Shown: positions 1 through 7,741 of the stretch, piece after piece
Numbering within the stretch: the stretch's first letter is position 1
How the letters are laid out: every line of letters starts with the position of its first letter
Virus record (IMG/VR): IMGVR_UViG_2711768010_000001
Direction: 5' to 3' (one strand)
Length of the DNA stretch: 7,741 bases
DNA from: a virus
Lineage: Duplodnaviria > Heunggongvirae > Uroviricota > Caudoviricetes
Translations under genes and position numbers: made by a program
The notes under the pieces: generated by a model
The model's input: the letters and a program-made list of their open reading frames with translations, nothing else
Told to the model about the DNA's origin: nothing
Database searches by the model: none

Positions 1-86
1 CTCCAATGACTAGTCTAAAAACTAGTATTAAGACTATCACTTATTTAAGTGATACTGGTTGTCTGGAGATTCAGGGGGCCAGTCTA
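1..86 (-). mobile_element. IS2 left end (partial); the element continues beyond the window start and its transposase genes would be on the minus strand upstream
   Basis: Reverse complement of 1-86 reads tagactggccccctgaatctccagacaacc(a/g)tatcacttaaataagtgatagtcttaatactagtttttagactagtcattggag, which matches my recollection of the IS2 terminus and promoter region just upstream of insC. Includes the 8-bp palindrome tatcactt/aagtgata (35-54). CTAG-rich, atypical of enterobacterial coding DNA. Outer end of the element is at position 86. Confidence 0.8.
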
Positions 87-88
87 GT

Positions 89-109
89 AAGGCTGCGAGA
101 GGTGAATAA
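89..109 (+). pseudogene. 3' remnant of a class II (S21/EssD-like) pinholin gene, truncated by the IS2 insertion
   Basis: Codons aag gct gcg aga ggt gaa taa encode KAARGE-stop, the conserved C-terminus of S21-type pinholins as I recall it. The stop overlaps the endolysin ATG (taATG) as in phage 21. Upstream of 87 the sequence is IS2, and this frame has stops at 11, 23, 29 and 50. Confidence 0.55.
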
Positions 110-472
110 TGTCGCCATCATTACGCAAGGCTGTTGCAGTTGCTATTGGTGGCGGGGCTGTTGCTATAGCATCTGTGTTAATCACTGGCCCAGGTGGTAA
201 CGATGGTCTGGAAGGTGTCAGCTACATACTATACAAAGATATCATTGGTGTATGGACTGTATGTCACGGACACACCGGAAAAGACATCATGCCTGGTAAA
301 ACGTATACCGAAGCAGAATGCAAAGCTCTCCTGAATAAAGACCTTGCCACTGTCGCCAGACAAATTAACCCGTACATCAAAGTCGATATACCGGAAACAA
401 CGCGCGGCGCTCTTTACTCGTTCGTTTACAACGTGGGCGCTGGCAATTTCAGAACATCGACGCTTCTTCGCA
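109..472 (+). CDS. SAR endolysin, T4-lysozyme-like muramidase (phage 21 R21 / DLP12 RrrD family); 3' end lost in the N gap
   Basis: ATG at 109 overlaps the holin-remnant stop. N-terminal Gly/Ala-rich weakly hydrophobic signal-anchor-release segment ([20 protein letters not shown]). Catalytic Glu-Asp-Thr spacing present in [16 protein letters not shown]. Strong resemblance to R21/RrrD as recalled. 121 codons visible before the Ns. Confidence 0.9.
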
Positions 473-712: not shown

Positions 713-895
713 AAATGCCCTGTGCCATCCTCAGCCGAAACCTCCAGCGCCTCCGGCATGGGCAATGATGCCACCGTCGAACTCTCTCCAGTTGCTGGAC
801 GAAACGTTCTCGGTATCCGGGACGGAATCATCAGCGACCAGACAGCATTGAGAATGCTTCAGGAGTACATCAGGATCCAATGCCTTGGGGGGTAG
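713..895 (+). CDS. Rz: Rz-like i-spanin, C-terminal part (5' end in gap)
   Basis: Frame 2 reads ...SGMGNDATVELSPVAGRNVLGIRDGIISDQTALRMLQEYIRIQCLGG-stop, which parallels the lambda Rz C-terminus (...TASGVDNAASPRLADTAERDYFTLRERLITMQKQLEGTQKYINEQCR). Position after the endolysin fits a lysis cassette. Stop TAG at 893-895. Confidence 0.8.
   Translation, partial: KCPVPSSAETSSASGMGNDATVELSPVAGRNVLGIRDGIISDQTALRMLQEYIRIQCLGG
714..851 (+). CDS. Rz1: Rz1-like o-spanin, C-terminal part, embedded in the +1 frame of Rz (5' end in gap)
   Basis: Frame 0 reads ...CHPQPKPPAPPAWAMMPPSNSLQLLDETFSVSGTESSATRQH-stop (TGA 849-851). The proline-rich PPAPPAWAMMPP stretch resembles lambda Rz1 (KPPPPPAWIMQPPP). Lies entirely inside Rz. 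Confidence 0.7.
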   Translation, partial: NALCHPQPKPPAPPAWAMMPPSNSLQLLDETFSVSGTESSATRQH

Positions 896-950
896 CGGTA
901 ATTTTACTCATTATCCTTCAAATCAGATTCTGTTGTCAGAGGAATGGGGG

Positions 951-975
951 AAGCTGGATTCGCAAGAGCTTTTTA
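951..975 (+). terminator. Weak candidate intrinsic terminator downstream of Rz
   Basis: aagct(951-955) / agctt(967-971) 5-bp stem with an 11-nt loop, followed by a T-run (tttt). Short and AU-rich, so marginal. Confidence 0.2.
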
Positions 976-983
976 TGGGCAGT

Positions 984-1493
984 TTAGCTAAAAAAAGGCA
1001 ACACGAAGCTAAAACTACCAACATAAAGTGCTGACCAGCTAGCAGCTGAAATCAGACTCACTGTATACACTTTCACTGGATGAAGTTGCAACATTCCTGC
1101 CACCAAAGGAGCAATATAACGCAGCACGGCGATAAAGCGCGAAGTGAAAAGTATTGACACAGAGTTATTTTGCAACTGAAGGCGAACCCGTTCTATTGTA
1201 TTGGAACGGCTTGATATTATACATGCAAGTTGAGGGATATGCCCAATTATTATACCAAGATGGTAATTAACGATAGTACCGCACCATGCGCCACTCATGA
1301 CCGTGATTCCAGCTTCCCATGGTGAAAGAGTCGTCTTGCTGACTGTAATTACAGTGGCCATCATAATTGATGCTGGTGGCAATATCGCCGAAATGAGTAA
1401 AGTGGATTTTGTGAACGCTATTATAAAAAGAAGCCCCCATAGGCGATATGGATGAAGTACAAAATAGTTCATCAAAGCATTTATCCACTCCAT
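984..1493 (-). CDS. DedA/YqaA-family (SNARE-associated-like) polytopic inner-membrane protein; a moron gene opposite to the late operon
   Basis: Minus-strand ORF of about 169 codons. ATG at 1493-1491 preceded by AAGGAAAG (the track's TTG at 1496 is one codon upstream). Several hydrophobic segments. Motif pattern LPP-S-(x)n-SPW ... G-x-x-NYHLG ... AG resembles E. coli YqaA as recalled. Sits in an AT-rich island (about 896-1560) between the lysis and packaging modules. Stop TAA. Confidence 0.75.
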   Translation of the reverse strand: MEWINALMNYFVLHPYRLWGLLFIIAFTKSTLLISAILPPASIMMATVITVSKTTLSPWEAGITVMSGAWCGTIVNYHLGIIIGHIPQLACIISSRSNTIERVRLQLQNNSVSILFTSRFIAVLRYIAPLVAGMLQLHPVKVYTVSLISAASWSALYVGSFSFVLPFFS

Positions 1494-1546
1494 CAATGTC
1501 TTTCCTTCTGTGAATTTTTCTTTGCTATTTAACCGTGATACGACTT

Positions 1547-1576
1547 AATTTAGGCTTAAACACCTTACATTTACAA
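1547..1576 (-). promoter_or_regulatory. Candidate sigma70 promoter for the DedA-like gene
   Basis: On the minus strand: TTGTAA (1576-1571), 18-nt spacer, TAAATT (1552-1547), about 45 nt upstream of the ATG at 1493. Each hexamer matches consensus at only 4 of 6 positions. Confidence 0.2.
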
Positions 1577-1690
1577 GGTACTCCTGTGGGGGGCCCTGCC
1601 ACGGAGCGTCGCAGGAGTGAGTGATGAGGAAGAATTAAAGCAACCTATTGTGACAGGCAGCGATAACAGTAAATCACAGGAAGCATAATC

Positions 1691-2455
1691 ATGGCAAAAC
1701 CGGACTGGGAGGCCATCGAATCGGCATACCGGGCCGGAGTCCTTAGCCTCCGTGATATAGGCGAGAAATACGGCGTTACAGAAGGGGCTATCAGGAAGAG
1801 GGCCAAAAAGCTTGGTTGGGCACGCAGTGGCGGTACGCAGGTTTGCAAAAATGGTACGCAAAAAAGGAAAGTGCGTACCAGCAGAAAGCCTGCCATTACT
1901 GGCCTTACACAAAAAAGTACGCAACTAAAAACAGAATCTACACCGGATACGAAACCGATACGCGGAATGCGTACCGATCCCCCGACTAACCCATTCCAAC
2001 CCGGTAACCAGCAGGCATTAAAACACGGTGGTTATGCCCGTCGCCTTCTGCTCAAAGATGAGGTGATAGAGGACGCTAAAGCGTTGACGCTCGAGGACGA
2101 ATTATTTCGCCTTCGTGCTAACAACCTTGTCGCTGCAGAGAATATTGGTCGGTGGTTGGTGTCGCTGGAAGATGCTAATGGGGACCAGGAAAGGAAGATG
2201 CTGATTGAAAATATCAGCGCCGCCGAGAAAGCAATGATGCGCAATACAGTTCGTATTGAGTCCATCGTTGGCACGCTTGCGACGGTAGGAAAAATATTTG
2301 CTGATACAGCCTACCGCAAGGCCGCCACTGATAAGGTGTCTCTGGAGGCTGATCGTCTTCGCCGTGATGCAGGTATTGATGATGGCAATGGAGAGCGTGA
2401 CCTCAATGACTTCTACTCTGACATCCAAACCGACGCTGAATCCGGCTTTACGTAG
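1691..2455 (+). CDS. terS: Terminase small subunit (TerS) with N-terminal helix-turn-helix
   Basis: ATG at 1691 preceded by AGGAAG with an 8-nt spacer. N-terminus LSLRDIGEKYGVTEGAIRKRAKKLGW is a typical TerS DNA-binding HTH. Basic low-complexity linker, then a helical C-terminal region. Immediately upstream of and overlapping the large terminase gene. Stop TAG 2453-2455. Confidence 0.88.
   Translation: MAKPDWEAIESAYRAGVLSLRDIGEKYGVTEGAIRKRAKKLGWARSGGTQVCKNGTQKRKVRTSRKPAITGLTQKSTQLKTESTPDTKPIRGMRTDPPTNPFQPGNQQALKHGGYARRLLLKDEVIEDAKALTLEDELFRLRANNLVAAENIGRWLVSLEDANGDQERKMLIENISAAEKAMMRNTVRIESIVGTLATVGKIFADTAYRKAATDKVSLEADRLRRDAGIDDGNGERDLNDFYSDIQTDAESGFT
1832..1975. repeat. Cluster of five GTACGCA / TGCGTAC repeats inside terS (candidate pac or TerS-binding array)
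   Basis: ggtacgca at 1832-1839 and 1853-1860; tgcgtacc at 1872-1879; gtacgca at 1917-1923; tgcgtacc at 1968-1975. Copies 2 and 3 form a perfect 8-bp inverted repeat with an 11-nt spacer. Found by direct reading. Confidence 0.35.
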
Positions 2456-3809
2456 TTTCTGGACTATGCGGGCACGTAACAAAGTGCTTTATGGTGGTCG
2501 GTCATCGTCAAAATCATGGGATGCCGCTGGCATTGCCATATTTCTGTCGAATAAATACACCCTGCGTTTTTGTTGTGCCCGTCAGATCCAGAATAAAATC
2601 GAAGAGTCGGTGTATACCCTGCTCAAAATTCAGATAGACAGGTTTGGTCTGCGGCACCGTTTCCGTATTCTGAACAACAAAATCATTAACCGGGTTACTG
2701 GCTCGGAATTTGTTTTTTATGGATTATGGCGCAACATCGAAGAAATTAAGTCACTGGAGGGGATCGATGTGTTGTGGCTGGAAGAAGCCCACGCACTGAC
2801 GGAATACCAGTGGAAAATTCTGGAGCCAACGATCCGTAAAGAGGGTTCGGAATGCTGGTTCATATTCAACCCCGGACTTGTTACTGATTTCGTCTGGCGC
2901 AACTTCGTTGTTGATCCGCCCGAAGGCACTCTCATCCGCAAAATTAACTATGACGAAAATCCGTTTCTGTCTGACACCATGCTTAAGGTTATCGACGCGG
3001 CGCGACGCCGTGATCCGGATGGTTTTAAACATGTGTATGAGGGCGTTCCGGAGTCTGATGATGATGCGGCAATCATCAAACTGTCTTGGATAGAAGCCGC
3101 AGTGGATGCGCACAAAACGTTAAATTTCGAACCCAGTGGAAGAAAGCGTATTGGCTTTGACGTGGCTGACAGTGGTACAGATAAGTGCGCTAACGTTTAC
3201 CGTCACGGATCCGTTGTTTTCTGGGCCGACGAATGGAAGGCCAAAGAAGATGAATTACTGAAGAGCTGCCAGCGTACTTATCAGGCGGCGCTGGAGCGTG
3301 AAGCAGATATTGTTTACGACTCTATCGGTGTTGGTGCGTCTGCCGGTGCTAAATTCTCTGAAATTAACGCTGACCGGAAGAGCGAGAACGCATACGCGCG
3401 ACGTGTGAATTACCAGAGGTTTAACGCCGGTGCTGGTGTGCATGAGCCAGATGACGAGTACAACGGCATCCCCAACAAAGACTTTTTCGCAAATCTTAAG
3501 GCTCAGGCATGGTGGCTGGTGGCTGACCGTTTCAGAAATACGTTTAACGCCATTAACAACGGAGAACAGTATCCTGTGGATGAGCTGATCAGCATAGATT
3601 CTCGTTGTCCGTTGCTTGAAAAGCTGAAACTGGAACTGACAACACCTCATCGTGATTTCGACCGTAACGGACGTGTGATGGTCGAAAGTAAAAAAGACCT
3701 CGCAAAACGCGAGATACCGTCACCAAACGTTGCTGATGCATTCATTATGGCCTTCGCGCCAATCGATACATCGCTGGATATCTGGGAACAGCTGGGGAGA
3801 CAGGCCTGA
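2406..3809 (+). CDS. terL: Terminase large subunit (TerL), PBSX/SPP1-type ATPase-nuclease
   Basis: Walker A-like VLYGGRSSSKSWDAAG and Walker B-like IDVLWLEEAH in the N-terminal half; acidic nuclease-type motifs (IGFDVADSGTDK, YDSIGVG) in the C-terminal half. The frame is open from 2298, but the first 36 codons overlap terS. Start is ambiguous among ATGs at 2382, 2388, 2406 and 2466; 2406 chosen (GGAGAG 12 nt upstream, N-terminus MTSTLTSKPTLNPALRSFW). Stop TGA 3807-3809. Confidence 0.9.
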   Translation: MTSTLTSKPTLNPALRSFWTMRARNKVLYGGRSSSKSWDAAGIAIFLSNKYTLRFCCARQIQNKIEESVYTLLKIQIDRFGLRHRFRILNNKIINRVTGSEFVFYGLWRNIEEIKSLEGIDVLWLEEAHALTEYQWKILEPTIRKEGSECWFIFNPGLVTDFVWRNFVVDPPEGTLIRKINYDENPFLSDTMLKVIDAARRRDPDGFKHVYEGVPESDDDAAIIKLSWIEAAVDAHKTLNFEPSGRKRIGFDVADSGTDKCANVYRHGSVVFWADEWKAKEDELLKSCQRTYQAALEREADIVYDSIGVGASAGAKFSEINADRKSENAYARRVNYQRFNAGAGVHEPDDEYNGIPNKDFFANLKAQAWWLVADRFRNTFNAINNGEQYPVDELISIDSRCPLLEKLKLELTTPHRDFDRNGRVMVESKKDLAKREIPSPNVADAFIMAFAPIDTSLDIWEQLGRQA

Positions 3810-5275
3810 TGGCACGAAACAAACAAGCCCTGCGGCGAACTGTGCAGGCCACAGCTGATGGTTATGAGAATTTTATTGCCCGCGTAGGGATGCAGACACC
3901 TAACCAGCACTCAGCATCCACCTACCGGGCTAATTTCACCAGTCGTAACCGCATGCTGGTGGAATGGTCCTATCGTTCATCCTAGATCATCGGCGAAGCA
4001 GTCGATGCTATCCCGGATGATATGACCCGCAAAGGCATTCGCATCACTTCGGAAATTGATGCAAAAGATCGTGGCATTCTCGAATCACAACTGGATGAGT
4101 TGCAAATCTGGGATGCGCTGAATGACGTGCTGAAATGGTCGCGCCTCTACGGCGGCGCGGTGGGTTTCATCATGATTGAGGGGTAGGCACCAATGACCCC
4201 GCTGCGACCCGAAACCATCGGTAAGGGCAAGTTTAAGGGGATTCTCCCGCTCGACCGCTGGATGGTCGACCCGGCACTGACCCGCCGCATTAAAGATATG
4301 GGGCCGGACCTGGGTAAACCTGAGTTTTACGATGTGGTGACCACAGCAACGGGAATTCCTGCCTGGCGCATTCATCACAGTCGCCTGATTCGCTTTGATG
4401 GCGTCACGTTGCCATTTCAGCAGAAGATGACCGAGAACGAATGGGGAATGTCGGTTGTAGAGCGTATCTGGGATCGTCTTACCGCGTTCGACAGCGCTAC
4501 TGTCGGCGCGGCGCAGCTGGTCTACAAGGCGCATTTGCGTACCTACAGCGTGGAGAAGCTACGCGAGCTTATCGCACTTGGTGGTCCTGCGTATGAAGCG
4601 TTGCTGAAGAATATCGACCTGATTCGACAGTTCCAGAGTAATGAAGGCATGACGCTCATGGACTCGCGGGATAAGTTTGAAACCCATCAGTACAGCTTCA
4701 GTGGTCTGGATGACATCCTTTCGCAGTTTGTAGAACAGATTAGTGGCGCTGTTGGTATCCCACTGGTGCGGTTGTTCGGACAGTCCCCGAAAGGATTTTC
4801 TACCGGTGATGCAGACCTTGCCAACTATTACGATCGCATCAGTTCGTTGCAGGAGAGGCGTTTACGTCTTCCGGTGCGGCGGATACTGGACATCATGCAT
4901 CGTTCGGAACTTGGCAAGCCGCTGCCGGACGATTTCACGTTTGAGTTTAACCCGCTCTGGCAAATGTCTGATGTCGATCGCTCAACGGTGGCGTTAAACA
5001 CCACCAACGCAATCAGTACGGCGCTGGGTGATGGTCTGATGACACTGAAAGCCGCTATGACTGATTTGCGAGAAAATTCTGACGTAACCGGCATCGGGGC
5101 ATCCATTACCGACGAGGACATCGAGAATGCCGAAGATGAAGCGCCGCCCGGCATCGGCGAACCTGATGACGAACCGCAGGAGCCGTCAGGCGGAAATCCG
5201 GTATCGAACCAGCCTACGCAGGATAGCGAGGGCGGTCGGAGACATCGTAAATGGTCGCTACGATGGTTCAAATGA
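3809..5275 (+). pseudogene. Portal protein gene: one continuous 489-codon frame (terminal TGA included) interrupted by two in-frame TAG codons (3983-3985 and 4184-4186)
   Basis: ATG at 3809 overlaps the terL stop (tgATG) and follows GGGGAG. Hand translation of frame 2: 58 codons (MARNKQALRR...VEWSYRSS), TAG, 66 codons (IIGEAVDAIPDDMTRKGI...LYGGAVGFIMIEG), TAG, then AP plus the 360-aa ORF 4193-5275. No frameshift. Size and position between terL and the Mu F-like gene fit a portal. Confidence 0.8.
4193..5275 (+). CDS. Largest intact ORF of the portal gene (C-terminal 360 codons); likely to be called as a separate CDS by gene finders
   Basis: ATG at 4193 with GAGGGG 9 nt upstream; same frame as 3809. 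Acidic C-terminal tail. Stop TGA 5273-5275. Whether it is translated on its own is unknown. Confidence 0.6.
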   Translation: MTPLRPETIGKGKFKGILPLDRWMVDPALTRRIKDMGPDLGKPEFYDVVTTATGIPAWRIHHSRLIRFDGVTLPFQQKMTENEWGMSVVERIWDRLTAFDSATVGAAQLVYKAHLRTYSVEKLRELIALGGPAYEALLKNIDLIRQFQSNEGMTLMDSRDKFETHQYSFSGLDDILSQFVEQISGAVGIPLVRLFGQSPKGFSTGDADLANYYDRISSLQERRLRLPVRRILDIMHRSELGKPLPDDFTFEFNPLWQMSDVDRSTVALNTTNAISTALGDGLMTLKAAMTDLRENSDVTGIGASITDEDIENAEDEAPPGIGEPDDEPQEPSGGNPVSNQPTQDSEGGRRHRKWSLRWFK

Positions 5276-5909
5276 CAGTATCACGGAAATTATTGCGGCG
5301 CTGGAGCGTTACAGTGAAATCATCACCCCCTGGGCGACAAAGGTCGCGGAAAACTTTACTGCGGACCTAACCCGGCAGAACGAGAAAGTTTGGCGGCAAC
5401 ACAGCAAGAACATCAGTCGCGAGCTCCGCAATCTTGTGGAAAGCGCTCCTGTGGGCCAGGTGATGCAATCCATCATCGCCGAACAGGTCAAGTACATCAA
5501 ATCTCTGCCTCTCGAGGCCGCAGACAGGGTGTACGACATCCAGAACAAAGCGATAGAGGCTGTTGTCACCGGTGGTCGGGCGGAGCAGTTTGCTAAAGAG
5601 ATTGCATCTACCGGCGATGTTGCTAAGTCTAGGGCCGATCTGATTGCCCGAACGGAACTGGGAAGAGCAACGGGCGCGCTGGATATGGCCCGAGCGATAG
5701 CTATTGGCTCGGATGGTTATATTTGGCGTACAGCCGATGATGGCGATGTCCGAGATTCCCACGATCACATGAAAGGTAAATTCGTCCGCTGGGATTCACC
5801 TCCAACTTTGGACGGCATGACCGGCCACGCGGGCGAGCTGCCAAACTGCCGCTGCTATAAAGAGATCGTGTTTGTTCGCGTTCCATTCGCAATGAAAAGG
5901 GCAGCATAA
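5127..5909 (+). CDS. Head morphogenesis protein, Mu F / SPP1 gp7 family
   Basis: C-terminal Mu F-like signature: ARTELGRA ... W ... DVRDSHDHMKGKFVRWD ... ELPNCRCY. ATG at 5127 with GAGG 9 nt upstream. No alternative start lies downstream of the portal stop, so it overlaps the portal 3' end by at least 110 nt. Stop TAA 5907-5909. Confidence 0.85.
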   Translation: MPKMKRRPASANLMTNRRSRQAEIRYRTSLRRIARAVGDIVNGRYDGSNDSITEIIAALERYSEIITPWATKVAENFTADLTRQNEKVWRQHSKNISRELRNLVESAPVGQVMQSIIAEQVKYIKSLPLEAADRVYDIQNKAIEAVVTGGRAEQFAKEIASTGDVAKSRADLIARTELGRATGALDMARAIAIGSDGYIWRTADDGDVRDSHDHMKGKFVRWDSPPTLDGMTGHAGELPNCRCYKEIVFVRVPFAMKRAA

Positions 5910-5912
5910 CCC

Positions 5913-7133
5913 ATGAAATACTTTTTTGAGACCAGGCTCGGGGAAACCCGATACCGCCTGGCTGACGGCTCGTTGCTGTGCAAAGACGTGCCGATAGGAC
6001 GAACAGGTAAGCAGCTCTATGGTGCTGATGACCTGCCAAAACTGAAACCCGATAAGTTCGGTGAAATAGTCGTCACGCGTTCTCCTGAGCAGGTATTCCA
6101 TCCGGCCACGCTTGCCTCATTCGAAGGGATGAGCATCACGATCCTGCATCCTGAAGATGAAAACGGGAATGTGCGGCTGGTAAATCCCGAGAACTGGAAA
6201 GAGCTTGCTGTCGGGCACCTCCAGAATGTCCGGCGCGGGACGGGTGAGCAGTCTGATTTGATGCTGGCTGACCTTATCGTCAAAGACGAAAGCGCCATTC
6301 AGCTTATCGAAGATGGCCTGCGCGAAGTGTCGTGCGGCTATGACGCGGAGTACGAGCAGACCGAGCCAGGTAAAGCCGAGCAGGTCGATATTACCGGAAA
6401 CCATGTGGCTCTTGTCCCTAAAGGCAGAGCCGGAAATCGTTGTGCAATTGGAGACAGAGACACAATGGCAAATCAAAAGAAAAACTGGTGGAACCGCATG
6501 CGTGCGGCCATCAAGACAGGAGATGCCGACACCATGAACGAACTGGTGGAGTCGGCTCCCGCATCGGTTACAGGAGATGAGGGGGATTTGCCGCAGGGCG
6601 TTAATCTCAACATCAACCTGTCCCCGCAGCAACCACTACCGGACAAAGCACCAGAGATGGGCGGAGATCCAACCGGCGACAGTGATGATGACCTCAAAAC
6701 ATTACTGAAAGCCCTGCTGGCTAAGCTGGAAAGAAATGCCACGGGCGATAACGATAATAAGCCTGACGATAATCCGACCGGTGACGGCGAGGACGATGAA
6801 GAGGAAACCACGATTACTGGTGACTCAGCCTGGCGTGCCGAAGTTATCGTTCCGGGTATCGATCTGAGCCGTAAGATGAAACCGACCGCGTTCAAACGCG
6901 AGGTTCTGGCTTCTGCTGACAAAACGCTGGTTCGCCAGATAGTCGGTGATGCGGATATCCGCAAATTACCGAAACAATCGGTCGACATGGCGTTTAATGC
7001 CGTGTCTGAGGTTGCCAAAGGGCGAAACACCCGCGCCACCACCGGCGATGCACAGCGCCTAAACATGGGCATGACCAGTATCGCTTCCCTGAACAAACAA
7101 AACGCTGAATTCTGGGCAAACCGTAAAGGGTAA
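5913..7133 (+). CDS. DUF2213-family phage protein (PBSX XkdF-like putative prohead protease or scaffold) with an acidic low-complexity middle region
   Basis: N-terminal 180 aa carry motifs I associate with DUF2213 (RTGKQLY, RSPEQVF, ITILHP, SCGYDAEYE, NHVALVPKGRAG). Middle region is Asp/Glu-rich with repeated TGD tripeptides. Helical C-terminus. Position between the Mu F gene and downstream capsid genes is typical. Stop TAA. Confidence 0.8.
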   Translation: MKYFFETRLGETRYRLADGSLLCKDVPIGRTGKQLYGADDLPKLKPDKFGEIVVTRSPEQVFHPATLASFEGMSITILHPEDENGNVRLVNPENWKELAVGHLQNVRRGTGEQSDLMLADLIVKDESAIQLIEDGLREVSCGYDAEYEQTEPGKAEQVDITGNHVALVPKGRAGNRCAIGDRDTMANQKKNWWNRMRAAIKTGDADTMNELVESAPASVTGDEGDLPQGVNLNINLSPQQPLPDKAPEMGGDPTGDSDDDLKTLLKALLAKLERNATGDNDNKPDDNPTGDGEDDEEETTITGDSAWRAEVIVPGIDLSRKMKPTAFKREVLASADKTLVRQIVGDADIRKLPKQSVDMAFNAVSEVAKGRNTRATTGDAQRLNMGMTSIASLNKQNAEFWANRKG

Positions 7134-7136
7134 AAA

Positions 7137-7643
7137 ATGAATAATGTATTTCTGTACCGGATGCCTGTTGGCATTGCCGGGGCTGTCTCTCGCCCGCAGG
7201 ACTTAACCGTCGAACCGGTGGTCCTTAAATCCGATAACGCCTTCGCTGCCTATGGCCTGGCTGGTAAATACGATGATGACGGTTTTTTCGTGCCGCTGGC
7301 AGATGGTGATACCGCAGACAAGGTGAAGGGGATCTACGTGCGCCCTTATCCGACCACGTCGCAGCCGGACATGGTTCGCCAGGTGGGAACAGGCAAGAAC
7401 TTCCCGGGCGACGCCATGAAGCGTGGCTACGTGACCGTTAATCTCGGTTCTGATTTTGATGCCAGCACTATCAAAAAAGGCGATCCGGTATACGTTGTCG
7501 TCTCCACTGATGAATCCATCAAAGTGCCGCTGGGTGGATTCATGTCCACGTCAGTCAGTGGCAAAAACGTGGTGCTGACCAACGCTGAATTCACAGGTGC
7601 CGGTGATGCTGACGGCAATGCAGAAATTTCCTGGAAGATTTAA
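7137..7643 (+). CDS. Small phage head-associated structural protein (function uncertain; possibly decoration or cement)
   Basis: 168-codon ORF with AAGGG 6 nt upstream of the ATG. Coding-like composition; Gly, Asp, Val and Thr-rich with no hydrophobic segment. Sits where head accessory or capsid genes follow the scaffold gene. Stop TAA 7641-7643. Confidence 0.7.
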   Translation: MNNVFLYRMPVGIAGAVSRPQDLTVEPVVLKSDNAFAAYGLAGKYDDDGFFVPLADGDTADKVKGIYVRPYPTTSQPDMVRQVGTGKNFPGDAMKRGYVTVNLGSDFDASTIKKGDPVYVVVSTDESIKVPLGGFMSTSVSGKNVVLTNAEFTGAGDADGNAEISWKI

Positions 7644-7658
7644 GGAACAGACGAATGA

Positions 7659-7741
7659 GGTGATGCTGCCAACTTACTGATTTAGTGTATGATGGTGTTT
7701 TTGAGGTGCTCCAGTGGCTTCTGTTTCTATCAGCTGTCCCT
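7659..7741 (+). mobile_element. IS1 left end (partial; continues beyond the window end)
   Basis: ggtgatgctgccaacttactgatttagtgtatgatggtgtttttgaggtgctccagtggcttctgtttctatcagctgtccct matches my recollection of the IS1 left terminal inverted repeat and the 5' region of insA (the same sequence that pACYC vectors carry via Tn9). Starts 16 nt after the stop of the preceding head gene. Confidence 0.85.
7714..7741 (+). CDS. insA: IS1 InsA, first 9 codons only (partial)
   Basis: GTG at 7714 (GAGG 7 nt upstream) followed by gct tct gtt tct atc agc tgt ccc, giving (M)ASVSISCP, the known InsA N-terminus. Truncated by the window end. Confidence 0.6.

Follow-up and report, generated by a model that had tools for sequence, protein, structure and literature searches.

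The lysis cassettes of phage 21 (S21, R21, Rz/Rz1) and DLP12 (essD-rrrD-rzpD/rzoD) have in common with the Shigella sonnei cassette described here their gene order, the overlapping stop and start codons of holin and endolysin, and an Rz gene in which Rz1 is embedded. Even when no holin is present, SAR endolysins undergo spontaneous release at a low rate, which can lead to lysis (PMC9239132). In the insertion sequence IS2, the left inverted repeat (IRL) is 42 bp long and is bordered on its inner side by the OrfA operator and by a weak promoter, P_IRL, that points inward (PMC3299598). Fusion promoters of the IS3 family, IS2 included, use an outward −35 in the right inverted repeat (IRR) (PMC9330008).

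Here, we analyzed a stretch of 7,741 nucleotides (IMG/VR virus record IMGVR_UViG_2711768010_000001, Caudoviricetes), referred to below as the window, in which an IS2 end directly precedes the last codons of a holin gene and the genes for a SAR endolysin and spanins. A preliminary description of the sequence had proposed that IS2 had deleted the holin gene; its claims are taken up below where results bear on them.

Results

Source of the window and state of the prophage

Ten chromosomal loci were gathered by means of a 360-amino-acid (aa) portal fragment specific to the window. Six of these (L004, L007, L008, L009, L010, and L012) were 100% identical to window positions 1 to 472 and 713 to 7741, and the other four were at least 99.9% identical to the window. 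The proteins of the locus are deposited under S. sonnei. HE616528.1 is named in a paper as S. sonnei 53G, of phylogenetic group II (its locus, L007, provides the coordinates given below outside the window), and CP019689 is likewise named as S. sonnei 75/02, of group IIIc. The 360-aa fragment is indexed in 2576 blocks of the genome collection, and the locus is therefore widespread in S. sonnei. The IS2/holin junction was found as one piece in no complete Escherichia coli genome in a similarity search, and the 44-nucleotide junction had no exact match in the collection of species-representative genomes, which appears to hold no S. sonnei genome. S. sonnei is a young clone, and neither intact open reading frames (ORFs) nor identity across its genomes says anything about selection.

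The portal gene (DUF1073) carries two amber codons relative to E. coli VL40, W59* (TGG to TAG, window 3983 to 3985) and Q126* (CAG to TAG, window 4184 to 4186), which split it into ORFs of 58, 54, and 360 aa and account for two of only nine differences from VL40 across 6946 bp. At the right end of the window, an IS1 end (7659 to 7741; 100% identical to IS1A in E. coli VL40 and FDAARGOS_943) cuts the DUF2184 major capsid gene four bases after its start (ATG at 7655). Beyond IS1, the S. sonnei loci continue with chromosomal genes (lactonase, LysR regulator, aconitase-like, and pectinesterase genes) instead of tail genes; the prophage has thus lost its tail half. The locus is a defective lambdoid prophage fixed in S. 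sonnei; because of the two portal ambers and the IS1-cut capsid gene, it is dead, and no virion can be made.

A gene for a 170-aa DedA-family (VTT domain) membrane protein (window 984 to 1496, minus strand) lies between the spanin genes and the small terminase gene; it looks like moron-type cargo and is also present in intact E. coli relatives. The closest E. coli sibling prophage, that of FDAARGOS_943 (L003), is decaying independently and has an intact holin gene. There, IS1 lies between Q and the tRNA genes (5056 to 5753), IS2 lies inside the large terminase gene (10048 to 11378), and the head-morphogenesis gene has an internal stop.

IS2 splits the holin gene, and nothing is deleted

Window positions 1 to 86 are the left (IRL) end of IS2, on the minus strand. 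They are the reverse complement of the 86 bp before the transposase start in an IS2 copy of E. coli FDAARGOS_943 (annotated as "IS3-like element IS2 family"), with identity at 86 of 86 positions, and such a match ending at the IS terminus is not due to chance. According to the published layout (PMC3299598), the 42-bp IRL occupies window positions 45 to 86, and about positions 1 to 44 contain the OrfA operator, P_IRL, and the 5′ leader; the window reaches the outer tip of IRL, and the orfA start codon lies 6 bp past its left edge. In S. sonnei 53G, the same stretch forms the terminal 86 bp of a complete IS2 of 1331 bp (L007 4386 to 5716), which is 99.3% identical to the E. coli copy (9 of 1331 positions differ). 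Its terminal inverted repeats, when compared, are imperfect, and its called genes encode proteins of 121 aa (HTH_Tnp_1) and 301 aa (rve) or a fused 409-aa form. The transposase genes are antisense to the lysis genes and point away from them, and P_IRL and the OrfA operator, placed by the same layout, are read leftwards, also away from the lysis genes. The preliminary description, which had taken this stretch for an inverted IS2 terminus with its genes pointing away, was right on this point.

From window position 87 onward, and not before, the sequence is homologous to intact class II holin/rrrD cassettes, and positions 87 to 472 are 99.7% identical to E. coli CFSAN029787, VL40, and others. By alignment to the intact holins of CFSAN029787 and VL40, window positions 87 to 109 (plus strand) are the 3′ remnant of a class II (phage-21-type) holin gene, consisting of the last two bases of an Arg codon, the codons for KAARGE (89 to 106), and the stop codon TAA (107 to 109), which overlaps the endolysin ATG (109 to 111) as TAATG. 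This 3′ end and its overlap, read directly at 89 to 111, are as had been described.

Since the window itself shows only the last six holin codons, IS2 had been thought to have deleted all the others and to have left a truly holin-less SAR endolysin/spanin cassette. The check proposed with this claim was to look beyond IS2 for the 5′ part of the holin gene and a 5-bp target duplication, and both were found. Each of the 10 S. sonnei loci has holin codons 1 to 66 immediately to the left of IS2, with the GTAAG duplication. The left flank of IS2 in 53G ends ...GAAGATAAGCGTAAG, and the right flank starts GTAAGGCTGCGAG...; as both flanks carry GTAAG, this is the 5-bp target-site duplication, with its left copy at L007 4381 to 4385, directly before the IRR end, and its right-hand copy at window positions 87 to 91 (plus strand). 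Both junctions were exact in 9 to 10 of the 10 loci. Excision in silico of IS2 together with one GTAAG copy gave an uninterrupted holin ORF of 71 codons with dual starts at Met1 and Met4, which differed from the FDAARGOS_943 holin by 1 residue and from the VL40 holin by 8. IS2 is a simple insertion between holin codons 66 and 67 of 71, and nothing has been deleted. With 66 of the 71 codons surviving beyond IS2, the proposal of a holin lost by deletion has next to no probability. An assembly artefact was rejected, the junctions being identical in independent complete assemblies.

The disrupted gene is annotated as a holin

After its 66 native codons, the holin reading frame continues for 28 codons within the IRR end of IS2 (WICPYISRHLLSLNPLQARCRRYSRGER) before it reaches a stop, which gives a holin::IS2 hybrid of 94 aa, or of 91 aa from the second Met. 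The native last five residues (AARGE) are absent from the hybrid, and 28 IS2-derived residues stand in their place. The hybrid ORF matches Pfam PF04971 ("Bacteriophage P21 holin S") at positions 1 to 62 of 64 (E value, 1.7e-34); it thus has the family profile match of a class II holin and lacks an intact ORF with the native C-terminal tail. The statement that the cassette has no holin is wrong; the gene is split, and the fragment upstream of IS2 still matches the holin family. Database entries for the hybrid, on 234 contigs, bear the names "lysis protein S" or "class II holin family protein [Shigella sonnei]". What is listed there as a 91/94-aa "holin" of S. sonnei results from reading through from a disrupted gene into IS2, and it ought to be labeled a pseudogene.

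The hybrid keeps nearly all of the Pfam holin domain, and its IS2-derived tail of 28 aa is rich in Arg and His, like the basic native tail. These features would suit a cassette that still works, in which the hybrid holin would form pinholes, Q-antiterminated transcription would read through IS911 and IS2 in genomes of the 53G type, and induction would result in lysis.

Endolysin and spanin genes are intact in S. sonnei

The endolysin gene keeps its native ribosome-binding region (GAGAGGTG, window 97 to 104). Codons 1 to 121 of this SAR endolysin (R21/RrrD type) are found at window positions 109 to 472 (plus strand), and the rest is hidden in a run of 240 N (473 to 712) that replaces 418 bp in identical S. 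sonnei genomes. Because positions 473 to 712 are N, the endolysin C terminus and the starts of Rz and Rz1 are unreadable in the window. The flanks of the run map to L007 6102 and 6521, and the 418 bp behind it contain endolysin codons 122 to 165 and the starts of Rz and Rz1; being 178 bp too short, the run shifts apparent reading frames across it. The full 165-aa endolysin, from an identical S. sonnei locus, matched PDB entries 4ZPU (RrrD; 2.9e-104) and 3HDE (phage 21 R; 2.1e-103) over residues 1 to 165. The endolysin also matched Pfam Phage_lysozyme (1.1e-43) and is approximately 93% identical to R21/RrrD. The triad E35/D44/T50 (E-X8-D-X5-T) is present in the window sequence, and the N-terminal SAR segment is rich in Gly and Ala, with residues 1 to 30 nearly identical to those of RrrD (4ZPU). 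Given its approximately 93% identity to R21, the protein would be expected to undergo Sec-dependent export and release on depolarization.

Compared with its closest E. coli relatives, the endolysin differs only by P41L (window 229 to 231), which lies between the catalytic residues E35 and D44, and by D127Y and R136C (L007 6117 to 6119 and 6144 to 6146, respectively). All three changes are non-synonymous, which, in these small numbers, is consistent with relaxed selection.

The 3′ part of the spanin genes lies at window positions 713 to 895 (plus strand), with Rz ending at 895 and Rz1 at about 851. The full 156-aa Rz ORF of L007 matches Pfam Phage_lysis (9.9e-30). Rz1 is embedded in Rz in the +1 frame, and its translation is that of a lipoprotein, with a VVGC lipobox and a region rich in Pro. 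Rz shows four amino acid differences from that of VL40. The earlier assignment of a SAR endolysin and spanins downstream of IS2 is borne out by the 4ZPU/3HDE and Phage_lysis matches. The ORFs of endolysin, Rz, and Rz1 are intact in the S. sonnei locus, which speaks for a cassette that still works; the three endolysin changes, with P41L between E35 and D44, may speak against it.

Late transcription is probably obstructed upstream of the endolysin gene

In 53G, a Q-type antiterminator gene (DUF1133/Phage_antitermQ match) lies upstream in the orientation of the lysis genes. It is followed by a rightward promoter-like site found by consensus scan, a candidate late promoter (L007 2281 to 2310); one tRNA gene; an IS911 copy between Q and holin (about L007 2391 to 3637); a terminator-like hairpin with a 10-bp stem (L007 4117 to 4143), just upstream of holin; and the holin fragment. 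The IS911 copy stands in place of most of the tRNA cluster that relatives have. In four other loci (L004, L005, L010, and L012), homology to 53G ends at the IS911 edge, so that Q is no longer linked, and an IS110-family element (about 2729 to 4177) lies 10 bp upstream of the holin ATG. The group IIIc strain 75/02 is among these four genomes.

For a cassette that still works, the Q gene and the promoter-like site upstream in 53G, in the same orientation, are in favor, as is the scan of IS2, which found no intrinsic terminator-like site on the plus strand within the element. Against it are the loss of Q linkage and the extra IS 10 bp before the holin ATG in the four loci mentioned above, as well as the decay of the remaining prophage, and we regard it as unlikely. 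We also consider unlikely the proposal that the 94-aa hybrid would be a functional pinholin with altered timing and that, with endolysin and spanins, it would constitute an inducible suicide or release module in the Q-keeping (53G-type) genomes. If this were true, the module would act in a prophage no longer able to make virions.

Transcription could also start at the IS2 end, where an outward or hybrid promoter would drive low constitutive expression of endolysin and spanins, as a domesticated function or as a hazard. Fusion promoters are known for IS2, e.g., at ampC (PMC9330008), and SAR endolysins show slow spontaneous release independent of holin (PMC9239132). The outward −35 of such promoters is in IRR, yet in this locus the end turned toward the endolysin is IRL, with IRR toward the holin fragment. 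A consensus scan of L007 2100 to 6800, of a kind that misses weak or non-sigma-70 promoters, gave no rightward promoter-like site at its threshold either within IS2 or beside it. With relaxed criteria, the 440 bp preceding the endolysin ATG yielded one 9/12 match about 350 bp upstream, inside IS2, in which the second base of the −10 hexamer is not A; two weak 8/12 matches, which may be counted in favor of such a promoter, were found in the window (28 to 56 and 59 to 88), and there was no extended −10. Overall, activation of the endolysin and spanin genes from the IS2 end is very unlikely. The concern that the locus is a latent autolysis hazard, raised in the preliminary description, is sound in principle in its reasoning on SAR endolysins, but such a hazard would require transcription, for which the analysis gave no indication, and no outward promoter was found at IRL. 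The same description had an IS, with its genes pointing away, separating the cassette from late transcription coming from upstream, and this agrees with the arrangement found here.

The explanation that we consider highly probable is that IS2 split the holin gene, with duplication of GTAAG, and that endolysin and spanins are little expressed or not expressed, as one step of prophage decay. A complete IS2 transposed into the gene between codons 66 and 67, with a 5-bp duplication and with its transposase genes antisense to the lysis genes. The hybrid keeps the whole membrane part of the pinholin and loses only the tail residues AARGE. Between holin and endolysin, the insertion places 1.3 kb of untranslated antisense IS2, and the TAATG overlap is broken. 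The hybrid ORF stops 87 bp into IS2, and about 1.25 kb is untranslated after it; long untranslated RNA is a classic setting for Rho-dependent polarity. A late transcript would have to pass through IS911, in some genomes also through the IS110-family element, as well as through the strong terminator-like hairpin and this long untranslated stretch, probably prone to Rho termination, and in several genomes the gene for the Q antiterminator is no longer linked. Because there is no convincing outward promoter at IRL, and because of the upstream ISs, the hairpin, and the long untranslated stretch, the endolysin and spanin genes are most likely silent, or transcriptionally insulated, and we infer that they would now be expressed little or not at all. 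Against silencing, the Q gene and the candidate late promoter remain upstream in 53G in the same orientation, and RNA polymerase modified by Q might, in principle, be able to transcribe across the ISs. By this account, the locus would be a step in IS-driven decay of the prophage and not a working holin-less lysis system.

IS2 copies near other lysis cassettes

The top "full-coverage" E. coli matches to the window were two-piece matches, made up of separate IS2 copies upstream of intact essD-rrrD cassettes. In E. coli AR24.2b (L014; 042-like), ET490 (L015), and EC21Z-048 (L016), IS2 or an IS2-like element lies approximately 60 to 600 bp upstream, with the same IS2 end facing an intact essD-rrrD cassette. 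A recurrent, orientation-specific preference of IS2 for lysis cassettes was considered, but none can be inferred, because the query itself selects that orientation.

Discussion

Prophage genes are routinely disrupted by ISs in Shigella, and published reference genomes contain the locus. A literature search on IS2, holin, prophage, and Shigella found nothing relevant, and the lysis genes go unmentioned in a TraDIS paper on strain 53G. The importance of the locus is small beyond annotation; it is a clean example of the dismantling of a Shigella prophage by IS2, IS1, IS911, and an IS110-family element. Expression of the cassette, if it occurred, could bear on autolysis of S. sonnei or on release of cell contents, and nothing here suggests expression.

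In comparison with phage 21 and DLP12, the S. sonnei holin starts with MYQMEK instead of MKSMDK, its gene is cut by IS2 at codon 66/67, and the endolysin carries P41L, D127Y, and R136C. The IS2 copy is in no way unusual among those of E. coli and Shigella, as it has the length of 1331 bp, the imperfect terminal repeats, the orfA/orfB genes, and the 5-bp duplication that IS2 insertions in these bacteria share. The locus is the same in kind as other instances of IS-driven prophage decay in Shigella, with IS2, IS1, IS911, an IS110-family element, and nonsense mutations together in one remnant.
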